Origin: Candidatus Hydrogenedentota bacterium
Lineage (GTDB): Bacteria; Hydrogenedentota; Hydrogenedentia; Hydrogenedentales; GCA-2746185
Assembly (NCBI GenBank): GCA_046583315.1
Contig: JAYGCN010000254.1
Location: forward strand, 1 to 45,876
Direction of reading: 5' to 3'
DNA: 45,876 nucleotides
Shown: positions 1 to 18,936 of the stretch, piece by piece
Layout of the letters: every line of letters begins with the position of its first letter
Numbering within the stretch: the first letter of the stretch is position 1
The notes under the pieces: model-generated
What the model was told of the DNA's origin: nothing
What the model saw: the letters and a program-made list of their open reading frames with translations, nothing else
The model's database searches: none
Program-made: the position numbers and the translations under genes

Positions 1-331
1 CAATATGGATTTTCGTCTTTTGGCCAATTACTAGAAGAAGCAACATCACAGGGGATACTCGATCTAGAACGAGATAAAAAATCCGGCGGATTCATTTTTA
101 AAACACTAAGTTCTTGAGGGTGATTTTTGAAAAGTTGGGATTATCTTACCTTAATCATTCTCTTGACGCTGGTCGTGCGTTTCAACATCATTCGTGTTAC
201 GTTCGCTCCATGATATGTTCAATATCATACTGAACTTCGCCCGACGACATTTTTAACACCCTCACTCTTGATTTCCTGCTCTTTTTCGGGGATGATGCTC
301 CTTTTGTGTGTTCGAACATCGGGAGTTTCTA

Positions 332-346: not shown

Positions 347-405
347 GCCTAAAAGTGGACGGTTGATTCGAGTTATACTCGCTCTCTTTGAAAGGAGACG
401 GTGTG

Positions 406-696
406 ATGACTCGGAAGAACAAGAAGTACGATGAGGATTTTAAGCTTGAGGCGGCCAAATTGGTGGTGGAGCATGGGTATTCGTGCGCAGAAGCCTCTCG
501 GCGACTCGGGATTGCTCATCATTTGGTGGGAAACTGGATAAAGGCGTTTCGAAAATCAGGGGAATTGCCTGCGGCAGATGAACCGACTCCTGTGGCGGAC
601 GATTTGAAGGCGTTACGTGATGAAAATGCGAAGTTACGCATGGAGAATGAAATCTTAAAAAAAGCGACGGCGTACTTCGCAAAGGATGTTCTGTGA
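406..696 (+). CDS. IS3-family transposase OrfA (HTH DNA-binding subunit)
   Basis: Protein MTRKNKKYDEDFKLEAAKLVVEHGYSCAEASRRLGIAHHLVGNWIKAF... is a typical IS3 OrfA HTH plus leucine zipper. An AAGGAG RBS sits at 392-397, upstream of the ATG at 406. The six-frame ORF begins at 388. Confidence 0.85.
   Translation: MTRKNKKYDEDFKLEAAKLVVEHGYSCAEASRRLGIAHHLVGNWIKAFRKSGELPAADEPTPVADDLKALRDENAKLRMENEILKKATAYFAKDVL
657..664 (+). promoter_or_regulatory. Programmed -1 ribosomal frameshift slippery site (A AAA AAA G)
   Basis: Seven A residues at 657-663 followed by G. The orfA zero frame reads L-K-K-A. The -1 frame is continuous into orfB. This is the classic IS3/IS911/IS150 arrangement. Confidence 0.6.
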
Positions 697-1574
697 GGTA
701 CGCCTGGATGCTGGCGCATGCGATGGAGTACTCAATTTGTATGATGTCCCGTGTTTTGAATGTAAGTAGCGGCGGATATTATGCCTGGAAGACGCGTAAG
801 CCTTCGCGACAACAACAGCGCCGTGAAGAGCTCACGGATGCCGTCCTGACCTTTCACGCAGATACCAAAGGCGCGTATGGGTATCGCAAAGTCCACGAAG
901 ACATTGTGCAGACTTTTGAGGAGCCTTGTTGCCTGGAAACCGTGCGACGTATCATGAAAGACAAGGGCTTACGCTCAACACGGGGACGCAAATTTGTTGT
1001 GACCACGGACTCGAATCATACGATGCCGGTGGCGGAAAATATCCTCGACCGAAACTTTGAGTCCTATGCTCCGAATGAAAAGTGGGTGACGGATATTACC
1101 TTTATCCCCAAGCACCAAGGGTGGACCTACCTTGCTACCGTGATGGATTTATTTGCACGGCGTATCGTCGGCTGGGCCACTTCTAAGCGCATCGACACGG
1201 CACTCATAAGCGAGGCTTTACATAAGGCCATCAAAGAAAGACAGCCCGGCAAGGGACTATTGCACCACTCCGACCGAGGCTCCCAATACGCCTCTAAGGG
1301 ATACCGAAAAACACTTAAGCAGTTCAAGATGAAATGCAGCATGAGCCGCAAAGGCAACTGCTGGGACAACGCACCCATGGAACGATTCTTCAGTAGCTTG
1401 AAAAGCGAATGGCTCCGAGATAAGATATTCCCAACCCACGAAGCGGCGACCAGTGCCATCTTCGAATACATTGAGACCTTCTATAATCCAAAACGGCGAC
1501 ACGCAGCCCTCGGCTACCAATCGCCCATTCAATACGAAAACAACATGAAACAACAGCAACCATTAGCAGCATAA
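693..1574 (+). CDS. IS3-family transposase OrfB (DDE integrase core); probably expressed as an OrfAB fusion by a -1 frameshift
   Basis: 293-aa ORF with the rve/DDE region (…HSDRGSQYAS…, …CWDNAPMERFF…). The -1 frame is open from the slippery site at 657 through 693, giving a KKSDGVLRKGCSV linker. Confidence 0.85.
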   Translation: MRYAWMLAHAMEYSICMMSRVLNVSSGGYYAWKTRKPSRQQQRREELTDAVLTFHADTKGAYGYRKVHEDIVQTFEEPCCLETVRRIMKDKGLRSTRGRKFVVTTDSNHTMPVAENILDRNFESYAPNEKWVTDITFIPKHQGWTYLATVMDLFARRIVGWATSKRIDTALISEALHKAIKERQPGKGLLHHSDRGSQYASKGYRKTLKQFKMKCSMSRKGNCWDNAPMERFFSSLKSEWLRDKIFPTHEAATSAIFEYIETFYNPKRRHAALGYQSPIQYENNMKQQQPLAA

Positions 1575-1725: not shown

Positions 1726-1755
1726 TTGACTCTTTGCTCCTGTTCGACGTATAGT
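1726..1755 (+). promoter_or_regulatory. Candidate sigma-70-type promoter for the 1793-6520 gene pair
   Basis: TTGACT (1726-1731), an 18-nt spacer, then TATAGT (1750-1755), about 40 nt upstream of the first start. A second TTGACA lies at 1717-1722. Confidence 0.3.
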
Positions 1756-1792: not shown

Positions 1793-4144
1793 TTGATGCC
1801 TGCCGGAGAATTGCTGCTGATTATGGCCGAGCGAAGTCCACTCATCGCCGGGGAGACCCGGATTCCGCCTGCGCGCGGGTTGATTACGGCGCACAATCGT
1901 CGTGAGGCCCCTTTACGGGTTCGGCATCTGCGCCAGTGGCTTCGGTACAATCGCCAAGTGTTGAATGCGCTGAAGGTGGATGCGCTGGCGAATGGTGCGC
2001 ATGTGGCGGTCGTGGAGGATTTGCTGCCGACGGCGACTGAACTGGGCTGTGCGCTGAGTCTGCGCACGGATGGCGCGTCGACTCCCCCGGACCTCGCGAA
2101 GTGGAAATCGGCGGGATTGTGGGATGTGAAGTTGTGCCCAGCATCTCTCGATGAATCTGCGCATTCGTGGCTGGATGCCTGCGCCAAAGCTGAGATACCG
2201 ATTCGTCTTCAGTTGGTATTTTCAAACCTTTCCAATGCGAATCTGGATACGCTGTTCGAAGGTCTTGCTAAATCGTCAGTCACTGAACTCGATTTCGTTT
2301 ACGCCGATGATTTGGCGCAAAACGGTTCTGCCAATGCGGTCGATCCTGAACAGGTCGAAGCCGTCGCGCGATTGATTCCGCAACTGGAAGCGTTGAATAT
2401 CCGGGTAACGATTCGTGGCCTTGCCTTTTGCGCGCTGGACGAGTCCCTGTGGTCTCACTTGGCGAACAGTCGGCAGAACGCGCTCGACCACGCGCAAACG
2501 ATTCCCACGTCGCTAACCTTGGCCCGCACAATTCACGGCTATGGCCCCGTGATCGGCGGAAAAATAATTCGCATGGTGCTCGCGCGGCATACATTGAGTC
2601 GCACGCCCGTCGATGAAATTCTGTTGCCGTTTCTTATTAAACGAAGTACTCGCTACCTCATCAATCGTCTGATACGTCGCGTCACCGAGCACATGAACGT
2701 GGCGCACAGTGTGCCCAAGGCCCTGCAACGCTCAAAGTATGAAGAAGTGTTGCAGGACATCCAGGAAGATGCGTTACGCACTGTGCCGAAGGCCTGCGAG
2801 TCGTGTCGGCTTCGACGCATCTGTGATCACGATACCGGCACCCCAAAATCGATTGAAGGCGAACTCGTCGTGTCGCCGATGCACTTTTGCATGGAGCAGC
2901 CGCTTCATTATGACGCGATTGACATGGAACGCCTTGAGGCCCACACGCCGTCGCATGAATTGGCAACGGAAGCGATGGACATTCTTACGCAACAGTCCCC
3001 TACGCGTGCGTATACGTCTGCCGATTACAAAATGGATGACGGATTTTCTGAACAGATGGAGGGTGGCCTGAAATGGTGGTCGGTCACGAACACGGAGAAA
3101 CTCAGCTCGTCACTGGGGACATTTAAGCCGCCGTTTACCGTGTCGGTCGAAGTGGGCGCGGGCATCGCGGATTATATGGGATTCAGTTTCGGCCGCCATT
3201 GCGCGATTGTGTGTCCAATGGAAGCGTATCGACACACCTTGTCATTGCACGTGGATGCCGATGGACGTTATATATTGTTGCGCGACGGGAAAGCGATTCA
3301 ACCCGTCGAGTTTGAAGGTTTCCATCACCTGCCACTCCATCTGGGCGACGTACTTCAGCCGCGAATTTCGTTGTGGAATATTGACGACTGCATTTTGACG
3401 CAGAGCTTGCGAGTGTGGTCGGACCCGGAGACGGATTCGCGACCGCCAGCCAAGTATTCGATTATTATCGTCAGTACGAAATTTACGCGACGGTTGCAAG
3501 CGGTGCTGCACAACATTGCGCACCAGCAGGGAATCGATTTGGCGCAACTGGAAGTGATCGTGGCGTATGTGCCGGGTCTGGATGCAACGGACGATTTGAT
3601 CGACAGTATGTCGCTGAGTTTTCCGGAGTTGCGCGTGGTACGGTCGGCGTTTCCGGAGCACCATGCCAAAGCGAAGGGACTGATGATTAACGAATCCTTC
3701 AAATTGGCGCAGGGCGAATGGATCATGTTGCTGGATTCGGACACGTTATTGCCGCCGGACTATTTTTCACGCATCGAAGAAGTTGCGGACGAGGAGGTGT
3801 TCATCGCGCCGGACGGTCGACGCCTGCTTACCCGTGAGACCACGGCGCGAATCCTGATGGGCGAAATAAAACCGTGGGAATCATGGGCTGAGCTGCTCAA
3901 TGATGAAGGCGAGTTTCGGCATCGTGAAACGCGCGGCATTCCCGTTGGCTTTTGCCAATGCTTTCGGGCAGAATACCTTGATAAGCACCCCTATCTGGAA
4001 ATGGACCACTTTGAAATTGCGGACATGCATTTCAGCATTGACGTGCTCAAAGACATCGGCAAGGAACATCGACTCAGCGGCGCGCCGGTGTTGCATCTCG
4101 ACCACGGGGGCAGTCAGTGGTATGGCACCCGGAAACACATGTAG
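1793..4144 (+). CDS. Large multidomain protein A (783 aa): radical-SAM-like N-terminal barrel without CxxxCxxC, a conserved CxxCx5CxH cluster, a conserved beta-rich domain with a CxxxCP motif, and a C-terminal GT2-type glycosyltransferase domain
   Basis: Long ORF with a TTG start at 1793 and an ATG at 1796. The N-terminal region has 'VAVVEDLL' and 'SLRTDGAS…LAKWKSAGLWDVKLCPASLDE' segments in the positions of the radical SAM GGEPLL and TNG…SLD motifs, but the Cys triad is absent. The middle region carries CESCRLRRICDHD. The C-terminus has the GT-A signature (SIIIVS…EVIVA…KG..INE…GEWIMLLDSDT) with a DxD motif. It is a paralog of the next ORF. Confidence 0.75.
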   Translation: MMPAGELLLIMAERSPLIAGETRIPPARGLITAHNRREAPLRVRHLRQWLRYNRQVLNALKVDALANGAHVAVVEDLLPTATELGCALSLRTDGASTPPDLAKWKSAGLWDVKLCPASLDESAHSWLDACAKAEIPIRLQLVFSNLSNANLDTLFEGLAKSSVTELDFVYADDLAQNGSANAVDPEQVEAVARLIPQLEALNIRVTIRGLAFCALDESLWSHLANSRQNALDHAQTIPTSLTLARTIHGYGPVIGGKIIRMVLARHTLSRTPVDEILLPFLIKRSTRYLINRLIRRVTEHMNVAHSVPKALQRSKYEEVLQDIQEDALRTVPKACESCRLRRICDHDTGTPKSIEGELVVSPMHFCMEQPLHYDAIDMERLEAHTPSHELATEAMDILTQQSPTRAYTSADYKMDDGFSEQMEGGLKWWSVTNTEKLSSSLGTFKPPFTVSVEVGAGIADYMGFSFGRHCAIVCPMEAYRHTLSLHVDADGRYILLRDGKAIQPVEFEGFHHLPLHLGDVLQPRISLWNIDDCILTQSLRVWSDPETDSRPPAKYSIIIVSTKFTRRLQAVLHNIAHQQGIDLAQLEVIVAYVPGLDATDDLIDSMSLSFPELRVVRSAFPEHHAKAKGLMINESFKLAQGEWIMLLDSDTLLPPDYFSRIEEVADEEVFIAPDGRRLLTRETTARILMGEIKPWESWAELLNDEGEFRHRETRGIPVGFCQCFRAEYLDKHPYLEMDHFEIADMHFSIDVLKDIGKEHRLSGAPVLHLDHGGSQWYGTRKHM

Positions 4145-4159
4145 AAGGACAGACGCGTT

Positions 4160-6520
4160 TTGACCCTTAAGCAACACGGACATCGCATCGCATCGACTCG
4201 AGGAATCGTGTCGACCGTAAACGCGAAAGGCGTGCCCTATCATCGCAGCGATGTCGAGCGGTGGATTCGCCTGAACCGTGTTGTGTTCAAAACGGAAAAG
4301 ATCGACCTGCTGGTGAGCGCCGATACCCTTGATGATGTGGCGCACTATTGCGAGTATGCGACCACGCTCGAATCGTTTATCAGTGTGCGTAGCGATTGTT
4401 CGTTTCCCCTACCTGATATGAGGTTGTTGAATGAGTCGGGTGTGTTGGATCTAATGCTGACCCCTACCCCCCAGTCGCTGGCACGTTTGGACGAATGGCT
4501 CGAGGCGGCACGCGACGCGGATCTTCCAGTACGTCTTCAACTTCCGATACCCTTTAGTGATGACTTCGAAGCGGCGGCCCTCGCAGAACATTATGCCCAA
4601 CATGGGGTGCATGTCGTTTCGGTCACGTGTCACGACCCTCTGCTGCCGAAGTTGTCGACGGGGTCGCCCGACGAAACGACGCGCTCTTACGAAATCATGG
4701 CTGCGCTCGCGGAGGCACTGGAGGCGCGGGATGTAGAGTGTTCATTGTTGCATATTCCTTTTTGTGCACTCGACGAATCGCTCTGGAAAAATGTACTCAA
4801 TGAACCGCAGTTCTTTTCCGATCACCAAGGTTATTCGCGCGAATCGTGGGATATTCTGCTTCAACTGCGCAACAAGGGCCCAGTTATCGCGAAGAAGGCC
4901 CTACTAATTTGGCTGGGCCGCTACACCTTGATGGCAAACCCGATTGACGACAAACTTCTCCCCTGGCTACTGGAACATCCTTGGCTGCGTGCACGGACGA
5001 TCGCATGGCATCGACTCACGCGCCACCTGCGGCTCAGTCGTTCGGTGCCAAAAGCGCGCGACATTCAATCCGACGAGGATGCACTGGCGGCGGTGTCTGA
5101 GCGGCACTCCCATAGCGACGAAACCCTCGGACGTGCCTGTAGCGCGTGTCGTCTCAAACACATTTGCAACCATCACGATCATCCTGGCGCAAAATCACTT
5201 AACGGATTCTTGCCGGTCATCATCGAAGGCGAAGTCGTCACCTACCCGATGCAGTTTGCGCTGCATCAGCCGAAATTTTACGATTCCATAGACGCGCGCC
5301 GCAGTGAATTGCCGTCCAAAATGATTTCGCTAGCCGCCCAAGCGAACGATATTCTTGAAAACTCGCCCCCGACTGTTGACGTGGATTCGTTTGACTACGA
5401 AGTGGATGGCGAATGGTGTCATCAATTGCCGGGAGGGGTTCGCTGGTATGGGTTGAGCAATACGGAGAAGATCAGCACGCCGCTCGGGACGCTTGATCCC
5501 CCATTTACGATTTCCTACAAAGCGGGCGGCGGCATTGCGGAGTATATCGGTTTTTCGTTGGGTCGTGACTGCAAACTGTTGTGCCCGATGGAGGCCTATC
5601 AACATACCATCACCCTGCACGTGGATCGAAGCGGATCGTATGTCTTGTTGCGTGACGGTCGACCGGTGCGCCCCATGCAGTTTGAGGGAAACTATTACGC
5701 GCCGACGCGATTGGGCAGCAATCTTCAGCCGCGCATCTCCATCTGGAATATTGACGAGAGCCTGGTCACGCAAAACGTGAAGATTTGGAGCGAGACCTCG
5801 GTAAAAGCCGACGACTCCAAGGAAATCGACTTCACGATCGTCACCGTATGCATTCGTTATGCACGAAGACTTCAGCTGGCCCTGCAATCCATTGCACACC
5901 AGCAAGACTTCGATCTTTCCCGCGTGGAAATTATTATCGCCTATCTCCCCGACGTGGATTCGACAGAAGACATCCTGGAATCCTTTGCGATGGCGAATCC
6001 GGAACTGACGATTCATCGTTCTACCTTTGCCGAAGACAAGGCGCAGGCAAAGGGTTTCATCATCAACGAATGCCTGGAGAAGGCCCGCGGCGAATGGGTT
6101 ATGCTTCTCGACGCCGACACCTTGATTCCGCCGGATATGCTCGTCAAAGTGATGGCGCAAACGGAGGGTCAGAACTTCATCGTGCCGGACGGTCGCAAAT
6201 TGTTGAGTCCAGAGGTCACCTCCGACGTGCTGCTGGGCAATCGACGTCCCTGGGAAGAGTGGGATGCGTTGCTTGGGACCGAAGGCGAGTTCCGGAATCG
6301 CGAAATGGGCGGCACACCAATCGGTTTTTGCCAGGTCGTGCGGCGATCCTGCTTCGATAAAGTGAAATATTACGAAGTCGACCATTTTGAGGGCGCGGAC
6401 TGGCAGTTCTCGATCCACATGCGTGAGGAATTCGGCGACGAACTTCGGCTATCGGGCGTACCCGTGTTGCATCTCGATCACGGGGGCAGCAAATGGTATG
6501 GGACGAGCCGGCATTTCTAA
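4160..6520 (+). CDS. Large multidomain protein B (786 aa), tandem paralog of protein A with the same domain order
   Basis: TTG start 16 nt after the stop of A, with AGGAC at 4146-4150. Blocks shared with A include FCALDESLW, GPVI, SVPKA, CxxCRLxxICxHxD, LSNTEKIS..LGT..PPFT.S…GGIA(D/E)Y(M/I)GFS(F/L)GR.C…CPMEAY.HT..LHVD, QPRIS.WNID, (F/I)(I/T)IV(S/T)…(V/I)I(V/I)AY(V/L)P..D.T(D/E)D…EW(I/V)MLLD(S/A)DTL(L/I)PPD and …GFCQ…LSG(A/V)PVLHLDHGGS.WYGT at the C-terminus. Confidence 0.75.
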   Translation: MTLKQHGHRIASTRGIVSTVNAKGVPYHRSDVERWIRLNRVVFKTEKIDLLVSADTLDDVAHYCEYATTLESFISVRSDCSFPLPDMRLLNESGVLDLMLTPTPQSLARLDEWLEAARDADLPVRLQLPIPFSDDFEAAALAEHYAQHGVHVVSVTCHDPLLPKLSTGSPDETTRSYEIMAALAEALEARDVECSLLHIPFCALDESLWKNVLNEPQFFSDHQGYSRESWDILLQLRNKGPVIAKKALLIWLGRYTLMANPIDDKLLPWLLEHPWLRARTIAWHRLTRHLRLSRSVPKARDIQSDEDALAAVSERHSHSDETLGRACSACRLKHICNHHDHPGAKSLNGFLPVIIEGEVVTYPMQFALHQPKFYDSIDARRSELPSKMISLAAQANDILENSPPTVDVDSFDYEVDGEWCHQLPGGVRWYGLSNTEKISTPLGTLDPPFTISYKAGGGIAEYIGFSLGRDCKLLCPMEAYQHTITLHVDRSGSYVLLRDGRPVRPMQFEGNYYAPTRLGSNLQPRISIWNIDESLVTQNVKIWSETSVKADDSKEIDFTIVTVCIRYARRLQLALQSIAHQQDFDLSRVEIIIAYLPDVDSTEDILESFAMANPELTIHRSTFAEDKAQAKGFIINECLEKARGEWVMLLDADTLIPPDMLVKVMAQTEGQNFIVPDGRKLLSPEVTSDVLLGNRRPWEEWDALLGTEGEFRNREMGGTPIGFCQVVRRSCFDKVKYYEVDHFEGADWQFSIHMREEFGDELRLSGVPVLHLDHGGSKWYGTSRHF

Positions 6521-7704: not shown

Positions 7705-8547
7705 CTATCCGGTCAGCCCTCGCGCGATGGCCGCATATTCATCCAACTCAAGCGTCTGCGGACGACGCGACGGGTCTATTCCAGCGTCTTCAATGGCGGC
7801 CAATGCCCGGTCGGCATCATATCCCAGATTGCCGGACTTGACCAGTGAATTGCGTATCGTCTTGCGGCGCATGCTGAAGGCGACGTTGATGATTTTACGA
7901 ATCAATTCTTTGTCAACATCGGGATAGAGCGGTTCGGCGCGGTTCCGAATGCGCACGATGCAGCTATCGACTTTGGGTCGCGGCTTAAAACAGCTGGCGG
8001 GTACTTTGTGCACGATATCCACTTCGGCATGCAGCCGACAGGCAAGCGCGAGTTTTCCGTAGATGGCCGAACCCACGGGCGCGACCATCCGGTGCCCCAC
8101 TTCTTCTTGCACCATGACCACCATACGCTCGAAATACAGAGACGACTCCCAGAAATGGAAGAGGATCGGGGTCGTGATGTAGTAAGGAAGATTGGAAACC
8201 AGCTTGAGCTGTTTGCGATCCGGCAGAAATTCCTCGACCAATTTCTCGACTTCGTGATTGAGGATATCGCCACGAAAAAGCGTCACGTTGTTGACCGTAT
8301 CAAACTGATCATGCAGGCACGGCATGAAGGAACGGTCAATCTCCACAGCAAGAACCCGGTTGGCCTGTTTGTGCAGTCGGGCGGTCAAGGCGCCGAGGCC
8401 CGCGCCCACCTCGACAACGTCATCCTCCTCGGTCAAGGCCGCCGCATCGGACATGATACGGTTGATGTTCTCGTCGAGCAGCAGATTCTGCCCAAGAGAC
8501 TTTTTGAATACTATCCCGTACTGGTCGATCCAATCGCGTAACGCCAT
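7705..8547 (-). CDS. rsmA: 16S rRNA (adenine1518/1519-N6)-dimethyltransferase RsmA/KsgA
   Basis: FKKSLGQNLLLDENI…VVEVGAGLGALTARL…AVEIDRSF…SNLPYYITTPILF are the canonical KsgA motifs. The most likely start is the Met of MALRDW at 8547, which has a GAAAGGAC RBS. The ORF extends upstream to 8655. Confidence 0.9.
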   Translation of the reverse strand: MALRDWIDQYGIVFKKSLGQNLLLDENINRIMSDAAALTEEDDVVEVGAGLGALTARLHKQANRVLAVEIDRSFMPCLHDQFDTVNNVTLFRGDILNHEVEKLVEEFLPDRKQLKLVSNLPYYITTPILFHFWESSLYFERMVVMVQEEVGHRMVAPVGSAIYGKLALACRLHAEVDIVHKVPASCFKPRPKVDSCIVRIRNRAEPLYPDVDKELIRKIINVAFSMRRKTIRNSLVKSGNLGYDADRALAAIEDAGIDPSRRPQTLELDEYAAIARGLTG

Positions 8548-8636
8548 GAAAGTCCTTTCGTGTTGACAGGCTCTATTATCCCAAATTGCCGTGGACCGAA
8601 TACAGGGATTTATTGCAGACGCAACCAACCCCTGAT

Positions 8637-10283
8637 ATGATAGTCGCCATGCCACAATTAATCATAGAGCAGCCGGGAGTCGCTCCATTGACGGTGGACC
8701 TGAAAGGCCCGGAAACCTCGTTTGGCCGTGCGGAGACGAATACGGTCGTGCTGATTGCCGATGAAATCTCACGCAACCACGCACGCATTCGTTTCGTACG
8801 CGAAAAAACAATTCTGGACGACCTGGAAAGCCTTAACGGCACCTATGTGAACCGTCAGCGCATCGTGGAGCGCGTACTGAACGACAACGACGAGCTGTGG
8901 TTCGGAAGCAAATGCCGCGCCGTATTCAAAGACGATTCGCAGGAGGTGCTTGATCAGCGCAAGAAGGCATCCACCATCGCCTTCGATCTTGCGAAGATCA
9001 AAAATGAGATGGACAGCGTCACCGCCTCGATGAGCATGATTCATCCGGTCGGCAAGATCGATAATGCTGCGGCAGACGTTCCTATGCCCCAAGAGCTTGA
9101 TCCGGAAGTCATGGCACGGGCGTTTCGACGTCTTGATGCCTTGTACAAAGCGACCCAGTTAATCTCCTCAGAATTTGATTTGCAGAAACGGATCAGTGAT
9201 GTACTCGACCTGGCGATGGAAGTGACCAATGCCGATCGTGGATTCCTGATGATGAAAGCGCTCGACTCGGACGAGCTCACGGTTCAGGTGAAACGGGATA
9301 AAGATAACGCTATCGAGTCGAGTTCGCCGAGTATGGGAATTGCCCGGCGTGCGGCCATCGATGGCGAGCCCGTGCTGATGTCCGATTCGGATGCAGATTC
9401 GGATTTCGGCGGGCGTGAAAGTATCATCATGCAGCGCATCGAAACGGCGATGTGCGTGCCGTTGCGGGTGGGTGATGACGACGTAATCGGCTCGTTGTAT
9501 GTGGATGCCCAGAATACCTACGCCTCGTTTACCGAAGAAGACCTCGAACTCTTCAACGCCATGGCCAGCCAGGCCGCTATGGCCATTGAAAATGTTCGCC
9601 TCTATCAGCGGATGGTTGAGTCGGAGAAAAAACGTGCTGATCTCGGCCGTTTTTTGTCCCCTGCCGTAGTCTCCATAATTATGAATGAAGACCAGGAAAT
9701 CCAGCTGGGCGGTGACAAGAAGAACGCCACCATTCTCTATTGCGACATTCGCGGGTTTACCCCTTTATCAGAAGGCCTTTCTCCAGCCGCGTTGGTCGAG
9801 TTGCTCAATGAACATTTCACGGCTATGACCGAAATTGTGTTCCGATTCAAGGGTACACTGGATAAGTATATTGGCGATGAGGTCATGGCACTGTTCGGGG
9901 CACCGTTTTCGATTGAGGACGACGCACTCATGGCGGTTCGTGCAGGCATCGCGATGCAGAAGCGAAATGCAGAGCTGAACGTGCTACGTGAACAGAACAA
10001 TTTCCCCACCTTCCATATCGGTGTCGGGATCAATTCGGGGGACGTGTTTTCCGGATATATCGGCTCGCCCGAACGCCTTGACTACACGGTGATGGGCGAT
10101 GTGGTGAATATCGCGTCGCGCTTATGCTCGGTGGCCAAAGGCGAACAAATTATCATCGGGAGCGAAACCAACCATCAAGTAAAAGAACATGTGATCACCG
10201 AAGCCGAAGGCGGCACTGTGTTGAAAGGCAAATCCGAATTGGTGGAAGCCTTCAAGGTCATCGGCGAGAAGTCAAACGGTTAA
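8637..10283 (+). CDS. FHA-GAF-class III adenylate/guanylate cyclase signalling protein
   Basis: An N-terminal FHA-like segment (…TSFGRAETNTVVLIADEISRNHARIRF…LNGTYVN) is followed by a GAF-like region (DLAMEVTNADRGFLMM…). The C-terminal nucleotidyl cyclase domain reads ATILYCDIRGFTPLSE…KYIGDEVMALFGAP…GVGINSGDVFSGYIGS. Start taken at MIVAMPQ (8637); the ORF opens at 8586. Confidence 0.8.
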   Translation: MIVAMPQLIIEQPGVAPLTVDLKGPETSFGRAETNTVVLIADEISRNHARIRFVREKTILDDLESLNGTYVNRQRIVERVLNDNDELWFGSKCRAVFKDDSQEVLDQRKKASTIAFDLAKIKNEMDSVTASMSMIHPVGKIDNAAADVPMPQELDPEVMARAFRRLDALYKATQLISSEFDLQKRISDVLDLAMEVTNADRGFLMMKALDSDELTVQVKRDKDNAIESSSPSMGIARRAAIDGEPVLMSDSDADSDFGGRESIIMQRIETAMCVPLRVGDDDVIGSLYVDAQNTYASFTEEDLELFNAMASQAAMAIENVRLYQRMVESEKKRADLGRFLSPAVVSIIMNEDQEIQLGGDKKNATILYCDIRGFTPLSEGLSPAALVELLNEHFTAMTEIVFRFKGTLDKYIGDEVMALFGAPFSIEDDALMAVRAGIAMQKRNAELNVLREQNNFPTFHIGVGINSGDVFSGYIGSPERLDYTVMGDVVNIASRLCSVAKGEQIIIGSETNHQVKEHVITEAEGGTVLKGKSELVEAFKVIGEKSNG

Positions 10284-10835
10284 CCAGCTCTTTCGCAAAA
10301 AAAACCGCCACACGACGATGCCCGAAAGTCCCAGCCCCCCAAGCAGAATAACCCCGTGAAGCCACCATTGCATGATGCCCCCACCGCCGCCGGAAGTCGT
10401 CGCCTCAGGAACCGCCACGGTCGCGCTCGCAGCCTCCGTTACGATTCCCGCCTCACTTGCAATTTCAAGCGATCGTTGCGCGAGATCGAACTCGGATTCC
10501 AATACCCAGAGCGGCCCGGTGTCTCCTTGAATCTCGATGCCCCCATGCGCCTTCCAGCTTTCTTTGATACGCCGACTGCGCGTATGAGTCGGTTCGGCGT
10601 AGAATTCTTCGATCTTCGTGAGGCGCAGATTCTCGATTCGCACACTTCGAATCCAAGGCTCCTCGATAGTAACTTTGAAGGTTTGCAGTTTGAGTTTATC
10701 GGGATCGACCAAAGCGTAAATCGGTACTTCGGATTCTTTCATGACAAAAACGTATGCTTCACGGGCATTCTGGGCCGCAACCGAAAGAGAAATAAGGAAG
10801 CACGTTATCAGCAGGTATGGAACTTTCATGTGCAT
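10272..10835 (-). CDS. Hypothetical exported protein with an N-terminal signal peptide, a Gly-rich linker and a C-terminal hydrophobic anchor
   Basis: MKVPYLLITCFLISLSVAAQ signal-like N-terminus with the start taken at MHMKV. Near the C-terminus is TSGGGGG followed by a hydrophobic helix (LHGVILLGGLGLSGIVVW). No recognisable enzymatic motif. Confidence 0.45.
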   Translation of the reverse strand: MHMKVPYLLITCFLISLSVAAQNAREAYVFVMKESEVPIYALVDPDKLKLQTFKVTIEEPWIRSVRIENLRLTKIEEFYAEPTHTRSRRIKESWKAHGGIEIQGDTGPLWVLESEFDLAQRSLEIASEAGIVTEAASATVAVPEATTSGGGGGIMQWWLHGVILLGGLGLSGIVVWRFFLRKSWLTV

Positions 10836-10849
10836 GAGTATATAAACCT

Positions 10850-11503
10850 GTGAGCGAATTGACAAGTTCAGTCAAAGTCGATAAGCTTTTTGCGGAGTAC
10901 ACGGAAACCCTGATGAACAATCCCCTGATTCTTATATCCATTCTTGGACTCATTCTTGCCCTGGGCGGCATGACCGTGCTGACACCACGCCTGTTGTCAG
11001 AGAATAAAACGCGGCGGCAGGAACGAAAAACCTGCACCCATACATGCCCCAATTGCCAGCACGACACCTCGCTTAACCCCAATGGCATGCGCCATCTTAG
11101 TGTCACCGAGTCGGCGTTGTTGATTCGGGAAATCCCGGATGCGCCGCAACATGACCTTGCAGACATTCGCTGCAAGGCATGCCAATCGTCCCTGGTATTT
11201 CGTGTCGATCAATGGCCTCCAGGCTTTCTCGCGGTCAACGTCATCGAAGGCCACACGGCGAAGAACAGTTGCACCCAATGCCGGATACCGTTGATGCCAC
11301 CTGAATTTCCCGCAGGGGCTTACGATGGGGATCACGACGCATTACAGCGATTACCCGCGCATGTGGGTCTGATCTGCTCGCGTTGCGAAGCGATCAATTG
11401 TATTTCGTGTGTGGTTGACGCGACCCGAAATCGTACGCAAGATGGCTCCCTGTTGTGCCCTCGCTGTTATCGAGGACCCGTGGACAAGGTGCATCATTTT
11501 TAA
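10850..11503 (+). CDS. Membrane-anchored Cys-rich protein with multiple CxxC zinc-ribbon-like motifs
   Basis: One hydrophobic helix (LILISILGLILALGGMTVL) is followed by CPNCQ, CKAC, CTQC, CSRC…CISC and CPRC pairs. The start is uncertain; M22 at 10913 is possible. Confidence 0.5.
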   Translation: MSELTSSVKVDKLFAEYTETLMNNPLILISILGLILALGGMTVLTPRLLSENKTRRQERKTCTHTCPNCQHDTSLNPNGMRHLSVTESALLIREIPDAPQHDLADIRCKACQSSLVFRVDQWPPGFLAVNVIEGHTAKNSCTQCRIPLMPPEFPAGAYDGDHDALQRLPAHVGLICSRCEAINCISCVVDATRNRTQDGSLLCPRCYRGPVDKVHHF

Positions 11504-11513
11504 CGAGATGTGT

Positions 11514-12533
11514 ATGATAACGAGAATGAATATTTCGACAACAATAATACGAATTGCCTTGGTGGGGGTACTGGGACTGTTGCTGTCCTGCGCCTCGACG
11601 ACGATGTCCAACGATGTTTCGGAAAATATTTCCGTAGCAAAGGCCTTAACACAGGACGAGACAAAACACACCGCGGAATACCTCAAACAATCGATCGGAC
11701 TAATTCTGCGCGACCTGGGCACAAAAACTACCGACGGCCTGGTACTCATGAACGGGCTTGAGAATGTAACCATCGCTGAATTCCAGATCACCGAACAGAC
11801 CACGGCCCAGGCCCTGTCATCGCTCTCCGAGTTGACGGGCGTATCGACCCATCTCACACCGTATTATACCTTCGTTTATGATCCCACCTATGAAACGCTG
11901 GTAACACTGCAAATCGAACAGGAATTGCCCGCGCGCTACCTGGAAACGATGGTCAATATTTCCATCGGCGCAGACACGCCTCTGTTCAGCGCCTTGGCAT
12001 TGCTCGGACATTCGACCGGGCTGACCCTGGTGGCGGACAATGCCATCGGGGACGCACAATGCGGCGAGCTTTCACTCCCCAACGTCCCTCTGCCCCAGGC
12101 ATTGGAGGCATTATTGCAATCGGCCCGTATTCCCCAGAGCAGCGTGGGGCTGCGTGTGCATGATGATTACTTATTTTTCTATTCCGCAGGCCATGCCTTC
12201 GCAACGAATCTGCTGAAAGAGCCCATCTCCGCCGCCGATCGACGCGCATTGGACGAATCCTGCTCGATTTCGCTGCTCGTCTATACCACCCCCGACAATC
12301 AGATTTCCAGCCAGCTAGGCGCGTCACGATTACACAGCGTGTTACCGGAGTTGTCCCTGCAATTGGGTATGCCGGTGAGAGCGACCGAAGAAATCCTGCA
12401 CCTGCCTGTGAATCCGGTGGTCATGAACGACATCAGCCGCGCAACCGCGCTGGAATTGTTGATGCAACAGTGGCTCGTCCCCGCATTTCAATATCAGGTG
12501 CAAGACGGAACCGTCCTGATTTTTCGTCGCTGA
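11514..12533 (+). CDS. Putative lipoprotein of unknown function
   Basis: Signal peptide with a lipobox, MITRMNISTTIIRIALVGVLGLLLSC|AS. About 335 aa, no known motif. The upstream ORF extension to 11409 overlaps the preceding gene and lacks signal-peptide logic. Confidence 0.55.
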   Translation: MITRMNISTTIIRIALVGVLGLLLSCASTTMSNDVSENISVAKALTQDETKHTAEYLKQSIGLILRDLGTKTTDGLVLMNGLENVTIAEFQITEQTTAQALSSLSELTGVSTHLTPYYTFVYDPTYETLVTLQIEQELPARYLETMVNISIGADTPLFSALALLGHSTGLTLVADNAIGDAQCGELSLPNVPLPQALEALLQSARIPQSSVGLRVHDDYLFFYSAGHAFATNLLKEPISAADRRALDESCSISLLVYTTPDNQISSQLGASRLHSVLPELSLQLGMPVRATEEILHLPVNPVVMNDISRATALELLMQQWLVPAFQYQVQDGTVLIFRR

Positions 12534-12545
12534 CGAGAAACGACG

Positions 12546-13205
12546 CTATCCCTGCAACGCGATGAGTTTCGTCATAAATCTGACGGCGTGCTCCTGCATT
12601 TCAATCGCAATGGATTCAACCTGCTTGCTAAAGTAACTGTGAAACGCGAGCGCCGGGATGGCAACACTCAATCCCGCGACGGTCGTGATCAACGCTTTGC
12701 TGATCCCGTCAGAGAGTACCTGCGCATCGCCCAATCCATACGCCGTGATGGCATCAAAAACCGTCACCATGCCGAGCACAGTCCCAAGCAAACCGATGAG
12801 CGGACTGATCCCCGCAACGATTTCCAGCAGCAACAATCCGCGTTCAAGTTTCTCGACTTCTTTGCGGCCCGTGGAATGGAGCATTTCAATCATTTGATGA
12901 TGCTCAAGTTGACGCGAGCCGATGAGCACTTCGATAATGCGACCAAAGGGACTCGTATGACTGCGACACATCTTCACGGCTGAATCCACGGACTCTTCAC
13001 CCTGATAAAGTTCGATCAGATCCAAGACGTTCTGCGGAATGGCGCGTCGTCGTCGCAAGGCAATGATTCGTTCAAAGGCCACGGCAAGACCGGATACCGA
13101 ACAGATGGCCAGCGGTATCATGGGCCAGCCGCCTTGTTTTAGAAATTCGATTGATTCGTTCAGCAATGCTTGTGTTTCCTTTTCTACATGTACGAAAATC
13201 GCCAC
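12546..13205 (-). CDS. ExbB/TolQ-family proton-channel protein
   Basis: 219 aa with three hydrophobic helices and the conserved …GISPLIGLLGTVLGMVTVFDAI… segment (ExbB/TolQ LGLLGTV.GM motif). It overlaps the upstream TonB-like gene by 22 nt. Confidence 0.8.
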   Translation of the reverse strand: MAIFVHVEKETQALLNESIEFLKQGGWPMIPLAICSVSGLAVAFERIIALRRRRAIPQNVLDLIELYQGEESVDSAVKMCRSHTSPFGRIIEVLIGSRQLEHHQMIEMLHSTGRKEVEKLERGLLLLEIVAGISPLIGLLGTVLGMVTVFDAITAYGLGDAQVLSDGISKALITTVAGLSVAIPALAFHSYFSKQVESIAIEMQEHAVRFMTKLIALQG

Positions 13206-14260
13206 CGGATATCAACATTTCGGCTTCGATAGATTTCCGGCACTTCAAAACCCAATTCCGGGAAAGGCGCGGCATCTCGAATGGATTCTCGGCACAGTAT
13301 CGCAAAGGTCATCGACGTTCCCGGATCGATAATTTCCACCGATTCTATCATGCCATCGGGTCGAATCGAACATAGAATGATAGCCTCGACACGCCGGACA
13401 CTGGGATAGCGCATTCGAATAGCGCTATGCCACTCAAATTCCACGCGTTTGCGCACCTGCAACATGAATTCACCCAATTCGTGACTCTTCGCCTCGAAAT
13501 TGATCACGCCGCTCTCCGATGCGCCTCCACCCTCGCGAGTCCGTCCCGCACGAAGGCTCTGCTCGATCACCCTGGGCGGTGGCGGCACTTCGGGTGCAGT
13601 CGCCCTCGCCACTTGAAAGCGTTCCCCCGGCTCCTCCTCAGGTTCGACGGGCTCGATGGGCTCTTCGGCGTCGGAATTGTCTTCGTTCTCCTGCGCAACC
13701 ATCTCTTCGAGTTCAGCCAACACCGTTTCGATCACATCTTGCCCCTCAGGCTCCGGAGCAGCCTCGTTTACCTCGTCGAGCGCTTCTTCCACGGGAGCGA
13801 CGGGTTCTTCAAGTGCAACAATCTCCTCCGTCGGCTGTTCCACATTGGCAGGTTCAGGCGGCAACTCGACAATCGTGGGCGTTTGTAGAATTGGCTCTGT
13901 GGGCACATGTTCTATCGCGTCGAAGTCGTCGATTACTTCCGATACCGGCGCGACACGCTCACCTGTTTCGTCCGATTCGTCGCGCGCCTTGCTGTTTTGA
14001 TCGGAAATCAGATCCGTATCGGCAACTTCTTCATCGGTAGGATCGGGGGTTTCAATGATACGCTTCACCCGCTCCGGTTCCGCCTCGGGATCAGGTTCCG
14101 GCTCGGGGGCTTGCTCCAATCGAAAGACGAGTGGAGCGGGTTGTGCCTGCGCCATCGGTTTTGGTTTCGCTTCGACACGTGACTGCGCCATCCACAGCAT
14201 GGCAATGTGGACGACGATCGATATCACGGTTGTCATAAGCACGCGACGTGAGTAGGTCAT
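13184..14260 (-). CDS. TonB-family energy transducer (N-terminal anchor, Pro/Glu-rich spacer, C-terminal TonB domain)
   Basis: An N-terminal helix (VLMTTVISIVVHIAMLW) is followed by a long stretch of PEPEPDPEAEPE…PV.PVEEA repeats. The C-terminus …EFEWHSAIRMRYPSVRRVEAIILCSIRPDGMIESVEII… has the TonB_C-like YP motif. Confidence 0.7.
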   Translation of the reverse strand: MTYSRRVLMTTVISIVVHIAMLWMAQSRVEAKPKPMAQAQPAPLVFRLEQAPEPEPDPEAEPERVKRIIETPDPTDEEVADTDLISDQNSKARDESDETGERVAPVSEVIDDFDAIEHVPTEPILQTPTIVELPPEPANVEQPTEEIVALEEPVAPVEEALDEVNEAAPEPEGQDVIETVLAELEEMVAQENEDNSDAEEPIEPVEPEEEPGERFQVARATAPEVPPPPRVIEQSLRAGRTREGGGASESGVINFEAKSHELGEFMLQVRKRVEFEWHSAIRMRYPSVRRVEAIILCSIRPDGMIESVEIIDPGTSMTFAILCRESIRDAAPFPELGFEVPEIYRSRNVDIRWRFSYM

Positions 14261-14345
14261 AGTCGTTGGCCGTTAATCTCCTACCCCAGTATACCGCGAG
14301 ATGTGGAATGAAAGAAAGATTCGTTCTCGATCGGTGCCCGATCTA

Positions 14346-14633
14346 CTACTGGGCGAGCTCCCGATTCAGTTGATATACGAAGGCCAATATTTCCGCCACG
14401 GCCTTGAATAGATGCTCGGGTATCTCCGCACTCAGATCGAGTACGGCCAAAATATTGACGAGATCGGGATCTTCGTGGATATGAATATCGTGTTCCTTGG
14501 CCAGTGTGAGAATCTTCTCCGCGATATACCCGGCACCAGTCGCGATGATTTTGGGTGCTCCCTCGCCGTCTTTGTCGTAGTGGAGCGCGACCGCTTTTTT
14601 TCCACGCGTTGGTTTCGGCGTTGAATCGCTCAT
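14346..14633 (-). CDS. Stand-alone FlhB C-terminal-domain protein (FhlB/YlqH-like)
   Basis: KKAVALHYDKDGEGAPKIIATGAGYIAEKILTLAKEHDIHIHEDPDLVNILAVLDLSAEIPEHLFKAVAEILAFVYQL resembles the FlhB/EscU cytoplasmic C-domain. ATGA start/stop overlap with the upstream fliK-like ORF. Confidence 0.75.
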   Translation of the reverse strand: MSDSTPKPTRGKKAVALHYDKDGEGAPKIIATGAGYIAEKILTLAKEHDIHIHEDPDLVNILAVLDLSAEIPEHLFKAVAEILAFVYQLNRELAQ

Positions 14634-15856
14634 GCGCTTATATCCAGCCCCGAAAGCGGTGCGAGTAGATCGGCCAGCGCAGAGAGTCTATCATGCTCTT
14701 CGGTGGTCGCCTGAACGGACACATCGGAAAAATGCCCCCTTCGGAGCCGTTCAGCAAGTGACTCAGAGGCATCCAGAATCACGCCCGCAATGGACTCCGA
14801 TTCCACGTGGAATCGGCATGCGCACCAATCGTCACGATGTTTCATTTCCATCCACACATTTCCAAGCTTCGACAGTTGAAGGTCCAGAATTACGCTGCCT
14901 TCACTTTTTCCATTCTCGCCTCCCGAAGATTCGCGACCCAATATGTGAAGCTGGGCGCGCTGGATGTCTGGCCCGAGTGGCAGATTCAAGAACACATACG
15001 GCACATCCGAAGATCGCGCATTTTGCAAATGCTGTCCCGCGGATTGATCCTGCAAGACATCTACTGCGGAGCGAAAGTTTTGAATTTCAGCGTCTCCCCC
15101 GAGCAGCGATAACACTGCAGAATCATTTCGCATCAACGCGAGTAAGTGATACAGGCCTGATGACTGCGCATCGAGATTCGCGCCGGGGGACACGCCTTCG
15201 CTTGCCGCAGCATGAATCGCCGCCAGCGGTGCGCGGTGCATCTGGTCATGAACGAGCCGCACGAGGCCTTCGATGGCATCCGGACGCGCAAGATCAACTC
15301 CCTTCCCCAGCAAGGCGAGAATCCGTTGCGCAGTCTCAGGAAGAATGCCTTTCGAAGCGGCTCCCTGCAACAGATGTACGAGCGTCTCTCGGGCGTCGGA
15401 GGCCGCGGCAATCGTGTGCACCTGAAAAACGTCGAGCGCAAGACGTAGTATGGCCGCGACGGAGGGCAGTGATGCTGGCGATAATGCGCTAGCGTGTTGC
15501 ACGGGCAATGATTGTAAGCCGGGGATTTCGTGGAGGAGCATCTGTAGCACCGCTGCGGGTGCCGAATTCGGAACGGCTGGCGCGGACGATGACGTACTCA
15601 GTGCTCCCGGCGTAATAATTACTTTTGGACCGTCAGGCTGGGACACAATCTGCACGGTGACCGGATCGCCATGCGCGAGAGTGGTCGATGTCGGCAAGGG
15701 AATACGCGTACCGGACAAATTAACGTGGCGTTGCGCGCCGGAACCGGTGACGTGGGCTTCTACAGGTACGCCCGATTTGATGGATTGCATAAGCTGCAAC
15801 AGAGTGTCGGTCAACGCAACCGTGATCGGGGTAAAACCACCGAGATGGGACATCAT
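14630..15856 (-). CDS. FliK-like flagellar hook-length control protein (tentative)
   Basis: 408 aa. The N-terminal two-thirds is Ala/Leu/Gln/Ser-rich and low-complexity. The C-terminus …SVILDLQLSKLGNVWMEMKH…VESESIAGVILDASESLAERL resembles the Flg_hook domain (LRL.P.eLG.v.v.l). Gene context: flagellar cluster, coupled to the FlhB-CTD gene. Confidence 0.45.
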   Translation of the reverse strand: MMSHLGGFTPITVALTDTLLQLMQSIKSGVPVEAHVTGSGAQRHVNLSGTRIPLPTSTTLAHGDPVTVQIVSQPDGPKVIITPGALSTSSSAPAVPNSAPAAVLQMLLHEIPGLQSLPVQHASALSPASLPSVAAILRLALDVFQVHTIAAASDARETLVHLLQGAASKGILPETAQRILALLGKGVDLARPDAIEGLVRLVHDQMHRAPLAAIHAAASEGVSPGANLDAQSSGLYHLLALMRNDSAVLSLLGGDAEIQNFRSAVDVLQDQSAGQHLQNARSSDVPYVFLNLPLGPDIQRAQLHILGRESSGGENGKSEGSVILDLQLSKLGNVWMEMKHRDDWCACRFHVESESIAGVILDASESLAERLRRGHFSDVSVQATTEEHDRLSALADLLAPLSGLDISA

Positions 15857-15875
15857 TCACCTCCCGGCGCGTATC

Positions 15876-16772: not shown

Positions 16773-16884
16773 GGCAACAACCCGGAGCCCCGTTTACAAC
16801 CGCATTTGGTGTACACCGTTATACCGCGTATGCTTGGGAAAACGCAAATTATGCACATTCGGCCGTCCCTCTTGAAATCAACGC

Positions 16885-17223
16885 CTATATCGTTACGTCC
16901 AGATCGTGATCATCCGGATCCTGCAAAACTTCCTTCTCTTCACTGGCCGTATAGACTGTGTGCGACTGTTCGTTAGTGGGCCCTTTTTTCCGTTTTCCGC
17001 GTTTTTTCGCCGAAGGATTCTTGTTGCGCCCGTCTGCATCGATCCGCGAATGCTCGGCTTTCTCGGTCTCGTTTACCTGGGTCTCGCGAGCGTGATCGTT
17101 TTCCTTCGATTCGGTCGCCGCATGTTGTTGCGCGGCCAGCGATGAACGGCTGGCCACATCCTGCATGCGTTCGGCCATGTGTACCCGTGAAATTTCAGAC
17201 AGCATGTCGATAGGCTGAGGCAT
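16885..17223 (-). CDS. Hypothetical charged, low-complexity protein immediately downstream of fliA
   Basis: 112 aa rich in E/K/R/S and predicted to be largely disordered, with no conserved motif. Position and size are compatible with, but not evidence for, an anti-sigma-28 (FlgM-like) role. Confidence 0.35.
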   Translation of the reverse strand: MPQPIDMLSEISRVHMAERMQDVASRSSLAAQQHAATESKENDHARETQVNETEKAEHSRIDADGRNKNPSAKKRGKRKKGPTNEQSHTVYTASEEKEVLQDPDDHDLDVTI

Positions 17224-17234
17224 ATGAACCTCCG

Positions 17235-18922: not shown

Positions 18923-18936
18923 TTTTCACCCCTCGC

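Follow-up and report, generated by a model that had tools for sequence, protein, structure and literature searches.

Two paralogous fusion genes lie in tandem in a Hydrogenedentota contig

The 45,876-nt stretch analyzed here (the window; contig JAYGCN010000254.1 of the Candidatus Hydrogenedentota bacterium assembly GCA_046583315.1) carries two adjacent open reading frames, ORF1 and ORF2, whose products of 783 and 786 amino acids (aa) join a degenerate relative of radical S-adenosylmethionine (SAM) enzymes to a glycosyltransferase (GT). Both genes are on the forward strand and start with TTG (in ORF1 an ATG follows at position 1796), and their products are homologous over the full length with the same order of domains, as an earlier reading made from the DNA alone (the sequence-only reading) had stated. 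BLASTP aligned the two proteins over 784 columns with 41% identity and 60% positives (E = 0), far above chance and slightly above the 35-40% identity estimated earlier; the spacer measures 15 nt instead of the reported 16 nt. Because this spacer is so short and carries a Shine-Dalgarno-like AAGGA about 10 nt ahead of the ORF2 start, the arrangement indicates that ORF1 and ORF2 form a single operon of two paralogs. A sigma70-like promoter match precedes ORF1 (Table 1); scanning the region for promoters and terminators gave no more sites than expected from shuffled sequence, and this match is only positionally suggestive.

AlphaFold2 models were built from family alignments for full-length ORF2 and for residues 1-550 of ORF1 (pLDDT 82.8, pTM 0.78). 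The ORF2 model divides into a beta/alpha barrel, a helical region (modelled with low confidence at residues 274-299), an all-beta domain and a GT-A domain. The coordinates of these parts in both proteins are collected in Table 1.

Table 1. The fusion gene pair and the parts of its products, in window positions
Feature	Position	Strand	Evidence or remark
Sigma70-like promoter match between IS3 element and ORF1 (TTGACT-18-TATAGT)	1726..1755	+	10/12 positions
ORF1, upstream paralog: pseudo-radical-SAM, four-Cys helical region, beta-sandwich, GT2	1793..4144	+	
ORF1 radical-SAM-derived (beta/alpha)6 barrel, aa ~28-210	1874..2422	+	without CxxxCxxC loop and GGE
ORF1 helical twitch-like region	2423..2992	+	C213 (nt 2429-2431), C335-x2-C338-x5-C344 (nt 2795-2824)
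ORF1 beta-sandwich, aa ~404-545	3002..3427	+	ConA-like/CBM-like
ORF1 GT2 (GT-A)	3449..4141	+	PF13641 9.8e-10, PF00535 2.3e-8; DxD D648-S-D650 at nt 3734-3742
Intergenic spacer, 15 nt	4145..4159	+	Shine-Dalgarno-like AAGGA
ORF2, downstream paralog, same four-part architecture	4160..6520	+	AlphaFold2 full length, pLDDT 83.8; Foldseek
ORF2 radical-SAM-derived barrel, aa 14-200	4199..4759	+	
ORF2 helical twitch-like region, aa 201-400	4760..5359	+	C202 (nt 4763-4765), C327-x2-C330-x5-C336 (nt 5138-5167)
ORF2 beta-sandwich, aa 405-545	5372..5794	+	AlphaFold2 model; GlfT2-like Foldseek match
ORF2 GT2 (GT-A), fold at aa 556-775	5825..6517	+	PF00535 4.5e-11; DxD D651-A-D653 at nt 6110-6118

The C-terminal half is a GT-A domain of glycosyltransferase family 2

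Searching Pfam, we found glycosyltransferase family 2 (GT2) models above their gathering scores in both proteins (PF13641 with 39.3 bits, cutoff 27, and PF00535 with 34.6 bits, cutoff 23.3, in ORF1; PF00535 with 43.4 bits in ORF2) and a GT2 match in 56 of the 56 family members scanned. The same search, proposed by the sequence-only reading as a check for radical SAM and SPASM models too, left PF04055 and PF13186 unmatched in ORF1 and ORF2. Comparison of the ORF2 model with solved structures by Foldseek returned GT-A folds, in agreement with the predicted C-terminal GT-A domain with a DxD motif. The best match was to GlfT2 and extended over beta-sandwich and GT-A domain (421 columns, E 2.8e-12), followed by K4CP, SpsA, AvpGT, WrtF, heparosan synthase, RmlT and TarP, with a Foldseek probability of 1.00 for AvpGT, SpsA, WrtF and K4CP. 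Target-normalised TM-scores were 0.56-0.66 for AvpGT (9jn3/9jma), SpsA (1h7l/1qg8/1h7q) and WrtF (9omk) and 0.24-0.31 for GlfT2 and K4CP (K4CP, 0.29-0.31), whose matches are local. Both the Rossmann-like GT-A fold and the DxD motif of family 2 are therefore found, in the Foldseek comparison and in the family alignment. Sequence-profile searches of the PDB with full-length and N-terminal alignments gave GT2 matches or noise only, and in the BFVD collection of viral folds the GT-A domain was the sole part that matched.

Counts out of 95 refer to the 95 fusion proteins compared. The DxD motif and the residues H742, H771, D773 and H774 (ORF2 numbering) are invariant in 95/95 members. We rejected the idea that one paralog is a dead glycosyltransferase, all invariant GT residues being present in both copies, and that of a membrane-integral GT2 synthase, there being no transmembrane segment in ORF1 or ORF2 (the maximal 19-residue Kyte-Doolittle average is 1.2).

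The domain preceding the GT-A fold, previously described as an unknown beta domain, is a sandwich resembling concanavalin A (ConA) and carbohydrate-binding modules (CBM). It has a mean pairwise identity of 51% across the family, compared with 33% for the barrel, the least conserved part. The CxxxCP motif noted in this middle domain is present, and its second cysteine (C475) is 95% conserved, but the first occurs in only about 50% of the members.

The N-terminal half descends from a radical SAM enzyme and has lost the SAM-cleaving cluster

Residues 1-550 are covered by no Pfam or NCBIfam model; in both ORFs and the 56 scanned members these libraries gave noise only (HxsC, E 0.43; Radical_SAM in 1/56, E 0.15). 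With a profile of residues 1-553 (alignment A2), 1.84e9 representative proteins were searched by hmmsearch. Beyond the family itself, it matched proteins of 350-460 aa at E 1e-16 to 1e-8, which are canonical PF04055 radical SAM proteins. These profile matches show that the N-terminal barrel, with the N-terminal 400 residues as a whole, descends from a twitch-like radical SAM enzyme, and lend support to the radical-SAM-like barrel proposed earlier; a generic TIM barrel was rejected on the strength of the matches at E 1e-16 and the shared cysteines. The partial (beta/alpha)6 TIM-barrel core typical of the superfamily was found in both ORF1 and ORF2.

What the barrel lacks are the catalytic motifs. 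The whole G..CN..C.FCY block of the active relatives is gapped in 95/95 fusion proteins, that is, the loop binding the SAM cluster is deleted. The absence of CxxxCxxC from both window copies, noted earlier, thus holds for every member, and the family alignment contains no substitute conserved Cys triad in the barrel. The SAM-binding GGE motif is absent from ORF1 and ORF2 and replaced in 95/95 members. Its equivalent is not the 'VVEDLL' first suggested: GGEPT of the active relatives aligns with ANGAH in ORF1 and VSADT in ORF2, at a position that varies across the family, and the neighbouring 'SLRTDGA' does align with 'TLITNG' of the active relatives, as had been thought. Because the CxxxCxxC loop is deleted and GGE is replaced, SAM cleavage and generation of a 5'-deoxyadenosyl radical would be impossible in the fusion proteins. 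The N-terminal domain, homologous to the radical SAM superfamily by its own profile, is presumably not a functional member of it.

Part of the ancestral sequence has been kept. The active relatives have 58 positions conserved at 90% or more, and 12 of these remain at 80% or more in the fusions: R14, D49, D97, R125, P160, P200, C202, Q217, D221, C327, C330 and C336 in ORF2 numbering. Since these residues are specific to the subfamily and not generic radical SAM residues, their retention suggests that the ancestral substrate pocket survives in the dead barrel.

Four of the retained residues are cysteines, the one in the FCALDE segment and those of CxxCx5C (Table 1). They occur in both ORFs, as the sequence-only reading had noticed; each is at least 94% conserved and the set is complete in 89/95 fusions. 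The same constellation (PFC … CxxCx5C) is invariant in the active relatives, so it is an inherited feature of the subfamily. Its likeness to SPASM/twitch cysteines holds in so far as those relatives belong to the SPASM/twitch branch (see below), but the Pfam SPASM model (PF13186) matches neither the ORFs nor the active relatives. Of the seven-Cys SPASM pattern, including Cx2Cx5Cx3C, only Cx2Cx5C and one upstream Cys are conserved, with D/N-H/G at the Cx3C position. Twitch domains are SPASM domains in shortened form that bind one auxiliary cluster (PMC9012708), and the 1+3 Cys pattern, in which the Cx3C cysteine is missing, agrees with this description, metal binding being predicted from sequence. 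We consider it reasonable to read the four-Cys site as auxiliary-cluster-like.

The proteins could, alternatively, be non-canonical Fe-S (iron-sulfur) glycosyltransferases that are still redox-active, with the CxxCx5C cluster (with or without C202) doing chemistry on the sugar or acceptor, for example by SAM-independent electron transfer or an unusual mode of SAM binding. The four cysteines have been kept in 89/95 members although the radical SAM cluster loop is gone, and auxiliary clusters of twitch and SPASM enzymes are known to touch substrates or to accept electrons (PMC9012708). We nevertheless regard such chemistry as highly improbable: the loop is deleted and GGE replaced throughout the family, the barrel offers no other conserved Cys triad and is the least conserved part, and six members lack Cys of the site yet keep all GT residues.

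These six members, each without two or more of the four Cys, are scattered over the tree (L056, L076, L085 at 3753-6068, both copies of L034, and L002), and the four-Cys site is therefore not indispensable. Their sporadic loss of Cys and the lower conservation of the N-terminal half speak for yet another explanation, in which the site binds structural zinc or no metal and the N-terminal half is an architectural relic serving oligomerisation or peripheral membrane association. A basic amphipathic segment would suit the latter role. It spans aa 262-292 in ORF2 (window 4943-5035; LLPWLLEHPWLRARTIAWHRLTRHLRL) and aa 273-303 in ORF1, is conserved and rich in W, R and H (T287 and H289 are more than 90% conserved), has a hydrophobic moment z of 2.3-3.3 and a net charge of +4 to +5, and is modelled with low pLDDT; such a helix may mediate contact with a membrane or a partner. 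Moreover, the N-terminal beta-domain of GlfT2 reportedly contributes to oligomerisation. A mere relic is unlikely, however, given that the ancestral barrel is lined by twelve subfamily-specific residues still present at 80% or more and that the domain is retained family-wide under evident constraint.

Active relatives occur in sugar clusters and as fusions on phage contigs

The active sister subfamily of the N-terminal module (alignment A4) consists of stand-alone proteins of 350-460 aa that have the motifs CNxxCxFCY and GGEPT. Its profile matched PqqE best (4e-16), then SuiB, SkfB, BlsE, GDGT-MAS, MoaA and anSME, with PqqE, SuiB, SkfB, BlsE and MoaA all at E 4e-16 to 1e-11. By profile, the active subfamily is a member of the SPASM/twitch branch. 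No NCBIfam model reached its cutoff on these proteins, and members such as Oleispirillum naphthae WP_337995979.1 and those of Caminibacter sp. and Kiritimatiellia are named merely 'radical SAM protein' in the database.

We examined four contexts of stand-alone relatives, from Oleispirillum, Kiritimatiellia, Campylobacterota and another bacterium; every one is a sugar cluster, and a GT gene is adjacent or nearby. In Oleispirillum (L090), GT4, radical SAM, GT61 and RmlABCD-like genes make up a sugar island that adjoins the genes for flagellin, FlaF and FlbT. The second context has an epimerase, the radical SAM gene and an overlapping GT2 gene, followed by an ABC-2 permease and ATPase; the third, the radical SAM gene, a sulfotransferase and several GT2 genes; and the fourth, a GT2 gene followed after 10 nt by the radical SAM gene.

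Radical SAM and GT2 domains are also fused in proteins that retain the cluster motif. P0252, P0256 and P0266 (727-749 aa) combine an intact CxxxCxxC and GGE with the same CxxCx5C, a beta region and a homologous GT2 domain, which in P0252 and P0256 scores more than 100 bits with the family GT hidden Markov model (HMM). ORF2 aligned with P0252 from the CxxC motif through the C-terminal HLDHG..W.G (26% identity over 474 aa, E 7e-26 in BLASTP). These three proteins are presumably catalytically active. The contigs of P0252 and P0256 (L088 and L089) carry T4-type gp13, gp15, sheath and tube genes, or topoisomerase and helicase genes, and we read them as contigs of T4-like phages. Ahead of each of their fusion genes (L088 4562-6745 and L089 8001-10250) lie a conserved gene encoding about 105 aa and a topoisomerase gene in divergent orientation. 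The target of the phage fusions could be DNA, a host glycan or a virion protein.

Intact-motif fusions on phage contigs are very rare, with three clusters found; scanning IMG/VR for them gave nothing with the patterns used, and scanning it with the family alignment gave weak GT2 fragments only. CP220-type Campylobacter phages carry the radical SAM part alone: group II phages such as CP220, CPt10, CP21 and CP20 (for example NC_027997.1 139402-140247) encode a subfamily member, annotated merely as radical SAM domain protein, that shares about 30% identity with P0252 over residues 8-303 of the latter. Additional rSAM-GT2 (radical SAM-GT2) fusions exist, all without a name. Two other architectures were seen. 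P0239 (1174 aa) joins a GT4 domain to a cluster-less rSAM-like domain with CxxCx5C, an independent fusion of GT and pseudo-rSAM, and P0216 (531 aa) joins a thymidylate-kinase/AAA_28 domain to an active subfamily radical SAM domain, which hints at a nucleotide-linked substrate.

Distribution, gene neighbourhoods and history of the pair

In 185,579 species genomes, the fusion family is represented by about 120 loci. Record titles name nearly all of them as Hydrogenedentota, with some Nitrospirales, Nitrospiraceae and FCB group, and the source annotation reads 'glycosyltransferase family 2/A' or 'hypothetical protein', never mentioning radical SAM.

We surveyed the neighbourhoods of 85 non-redundant loci, counting as an active relative any protein with more than 500 bits to the HMM of these relatives. 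Sixteen loci, the window included, have two fusion genes, in tandem in all but one, so that homologs do not always come in pairs, a possibility raised by the sequence-only reading. An active relative lies nearby in 14 loci and a different rSAM/SPASM gene is adjacent in 5; 41 have a single fusion gene and no radical SAM gene within 6 kb, and in 9 the upstream sequence was too short for judgement.

Where an active relative is present, its gene sits directly upstream of the fusion gene in 13 cases out of 14, co-oriented and at a gap of 2-300 nt. This raises the possibility that the N-terminal module is an enzyme-pseudoenzyme docking domain. It would form heterodimers with an active radical SAM protein of its own subfamily, a stand-alone one encoded upstream in those 13 loci and elsewhere in the genome of the window, so that a radical-modified sugar would be channelled or presented to the fused GT2; in loci with a tandem pair, the second fusion protein would replace the active partner. 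It would explain why a second fusion gene fills the upstream slot in pair loci, and it accords with the cis-fused active versions on phage contigs and with the subfamily-specific character of the retained residues, which are not general radical SAM motifs. The 41 loci with a lone fusion gene speak against it, as does the 45-kb window, in which we found no active relative. Docking is a possibility that we entertain with some doubt.

Recurrent neighbours of the family are GT4 genes (23 loci), a 718-aa TagH/Wzt-like ATPase of the ATP-binding cassette (ABC) type (at least 21 loci; E 1e-47 to 1e-56 to TagH and galactan-Wzt models), an ABC-2 permease and a second GT2 gene. The combination of an ABC-2 permease, a Wzt/TagH-like ATPase and glycosyltransferases is a hallmark of ABC-transporter-dependent (Wzm/Wzt) glycan assembly. 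A conserved 158-aa protein matching no Pfam or NCBIfam model is encoded after the GT4 genes in 15 loci (including L006 12892-13368 and L072 14799-15272).

The history of the pair was followed in a neighbour-joining tree of the 95 proteins. The upstream and downstream copies of the window, L005, L011, L008, L009 and L010 fall into two separate clades with congruent topology, which indicates that the two copies of this type of pair arose by duplication long ago and have diverged together since. Another set of pairs has upstream and downstream clades of its own, and in three genomes its paralogs are on different contigs; retention of two paralogs is thus recurrent, but they need not be linked in tandem. 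No family-conserved residue is missing from either window paralog. The clades differ at only about 7 conserved positions, of which four lie in loops of the beta-sandwich and two in the basic helix, a pattern that fits either two acceptor specificities or a heteromer.

The surroundings of the pair in the window

On the 5' side ORF1 is neighboured by an IS3-family transposase (388-1574, forward strand), consisting of two overlapping reading frames, 388-696 (HTH_Tnp_1) and 693-1574 (rve integrase core); no convincing terminal inverted repeats of the element were detected at the locus. In the syntenic loci L005, L009, L010 and L059 its slot holds an unannotated gene of about 340 aa, which we looked for in the window and found absent, the insertion element occupying its place. 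Window 1-115 on the forward strand holds what remains of a truncated gene, its 3' end (…QYGFSSFGQLLEEATSQGILDLERDKKSGGFIFKTLSS*). A convergent gene for a DUF975-like membrane protein lies 3' of the pair. KsgA (RrnaAD), a FHA-GAF-adenylate/guanylate cyclase and MotA/ExbB then follow in the same order at window 7705-13205 and, in L005, a 49%-identical relative likewise carrying the pair, at 12483-17967. GC content is uniform along the region (0.49-0.56). The gene order common to the window and L005 supports vertical synteny, and the locus is chromosomal, vertically inherited Hydrogenedentota DNA.

Further along, on the reverse strand, are a flagellar block (14630-19920) with a FliK-like hook-length protein, a sigma28-type sigma factor, FliN and FliM, and, 14 kb from the pair, a polysaccharide deacetylase gene (PF01522) overlapping a separate GT2 gene (PF00535; 20054-21860). 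The forward strand encodes a small Radical_SAM protein of 216 aa at 36958-37608 (PF04055 5.7e-9), which has no score with the HMM of the active-relative subfamily.

The flagellar genes at 8-13 kb from the window pair, together with CsrA/FliW at 5 kb upstream of the L005 pair, bear on a different acceptor. If the SPASM/twitch-derived module bound a peptide, the family might glycosylate a peptide or protein, such as flagellin or a precursor like those of RiPPs (peptides made on the ribosome and modified after translation); PqqE, SuiB and SkfB, which are RiPP maturases, are among the active subfamily's closest relatives of solved structure, and the Oleispirillum relative is located beside flagellin, FlaF and FlbT. 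A link of the pair to flagellin glycosylation is possible but weak; the flagellar linkage is distant, with housekeeping genes between. Among the recurrent neighbours there is neither a conserved small precursor gene nor a RiPP recognition element (RRE) or PqqD domain, and the Wzm/Wzt-like transporter and GT4 genes that do recur are typical of polysaccharide assembly. Peptide or protein glycosylation seems quite improbable to us as the general function.

Discussion

We think it likely that the fusion proteins are glycan-building GT2 enzymes equipped with a catalytically dead radical SAM module for recognition or docking. In this scheme, ORF1 and ORF2, two old paralogs of a soluble, cytoplasmic GT2 family, have a GT-A domain that would move a sugar from a nucleoside diphosphate sugar to a glycan acceptor, which may be lipid-linked or may be a protein. 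In at least 21 related loci this transfer step would sit in a Wzm/Wzt-type ABC-transporter-dependent operon together with GT4 enzymes. The dead radical SAM module and the beta-sandwich would recognise the acceptor, perhaps the same sugar or glycan that is modified by the active relatives; alternatively or additionally, the dead module might dock an active radical SAM partner. A structural or redox-sensing Fe-S cluster would occupy the four-Cys site, and the paralogs would either perform two distinct transfers or form a heteromer. The alternatives discussed above are not mutually exclusive with this proposal.

Several observations weigh against it. Neither PF04055 nor PF13186 matches the window proteins, and PF04055 was seen in a single member of the 56 scanned. 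Metal binding is deduced solely from conserved cysteines shared with the active relatives, and the six members that have lost two or more of them keep all GT invariants. Finally, the window pair and its counterparts in L005, L009 and L010 lie outside a Wzm/Wzt-GT4 operon, with radical SAM genes missing from their vicinity, so the pathway assignment is extrapolated for the window locus.

How the family relates to known proteins can be stated for each half. With twitch and SPASM enzymes (PqqE, SuiB, SkfB, BlsE, MoaA, BtrN, anSME) the fusions share a C-terminal extension with CxxCx5C and one upstream Cys; unlike them, they lack CxxxCxxC, GGE, a PF04055 or PF13186 match and the fourth Cys of Cx2Cx5Cx3C, and are joined to a beta-sandwich and GT2. 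The nearest sequence relatives of the N-terminal module are the radical SAM proteins of glycan clusters, which share the 12 residues but stand alone and keep CNxxCxFCY and GGEPT. The phage-contig fusions have the same domain order and the same four Cys but retain CxxxCxxC and GGE, and P0252 and P0256 are encoded beside tail, sheath and topoisomerase genes. GlfT2 and the soluble GT2 enzymes SpsA, K4CP, AvpGT, WrtF, RmlT and TarP have the GT-A fold with DxD, and in GlfT2 a beta-sandwich precedes it in the same arrangement; however, identities are 10-18%, none has a radical-SAM-derived domain, and the C-terminal HLDHGGSxWYG motif is specific to the fusion family. The NCBIfam model TIGR04347, 'pseudo-SAM/SPASM protein', resembles the family in the 'pseudo' of its name and was among the weak hits of the active relatives, but does not match the window proteins and is not known to include a GT fusion.

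To our knowledge, catalytically dead radical SAM domains have rarely been documented. When the literature was searched in full text for rSAM-GT fusions, pseudo-radical-SAM domains and Hydrogenedentes, neither this kind of fusion nor a radical SAM pseudoenzyme-GT was found described, and we found no curated family for it, in keeping with the sequence-only reading. None of the folds is new, and pseudoenzyme domains as such are familiar; what is new is the fusion, publicly labelled only 'glycosyltransferase family 2'.

A more far-reaching view, which we hold to be rather doubtful, combines the family, the stand-alone active relatives and the phage fusions into one undescribed 'radical SAM plus glycosyltransferase' module. 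In it, a radical SAM enzyme of the twitch type would perform a novel radical modification of a sugar or glycan, and the dead copy, serving as reader or hand-over domain and possibly tuned by its Fe-S cluster, would couple this modification to glycosyl transfer. Such a module would act in bacterial surface glycans (or on flagellin) and in phage-directed glycosylation.

The analysis would improve the annotation of a family, confined to uncultured bacteria, for which Pfam and NCBIfam offer no model of the first 550 residues, and it links three generically annotated groups: about 120 'GT2' genes of Hydrogenedentota, a radical SAM subfamily that consistently goes with glycosyltransferases in several phyla and in Campylobacter phages, and rare intact-motif fusions of phages. 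The putative rSAM-GT module so delineated is coherent, spans bacteria and phages and offers targets for finding a new radical sugar modification, for which cultured hosts of active relatives exist in Oleispirillum naphthae and Caminibacter. The Hydrogenedentota family itself, in which just the auxiliary-cluster cysteines are kept, represents a natural experiment on the role of a twitch/SPASM auxiliary site in the absence of radical chemistry.

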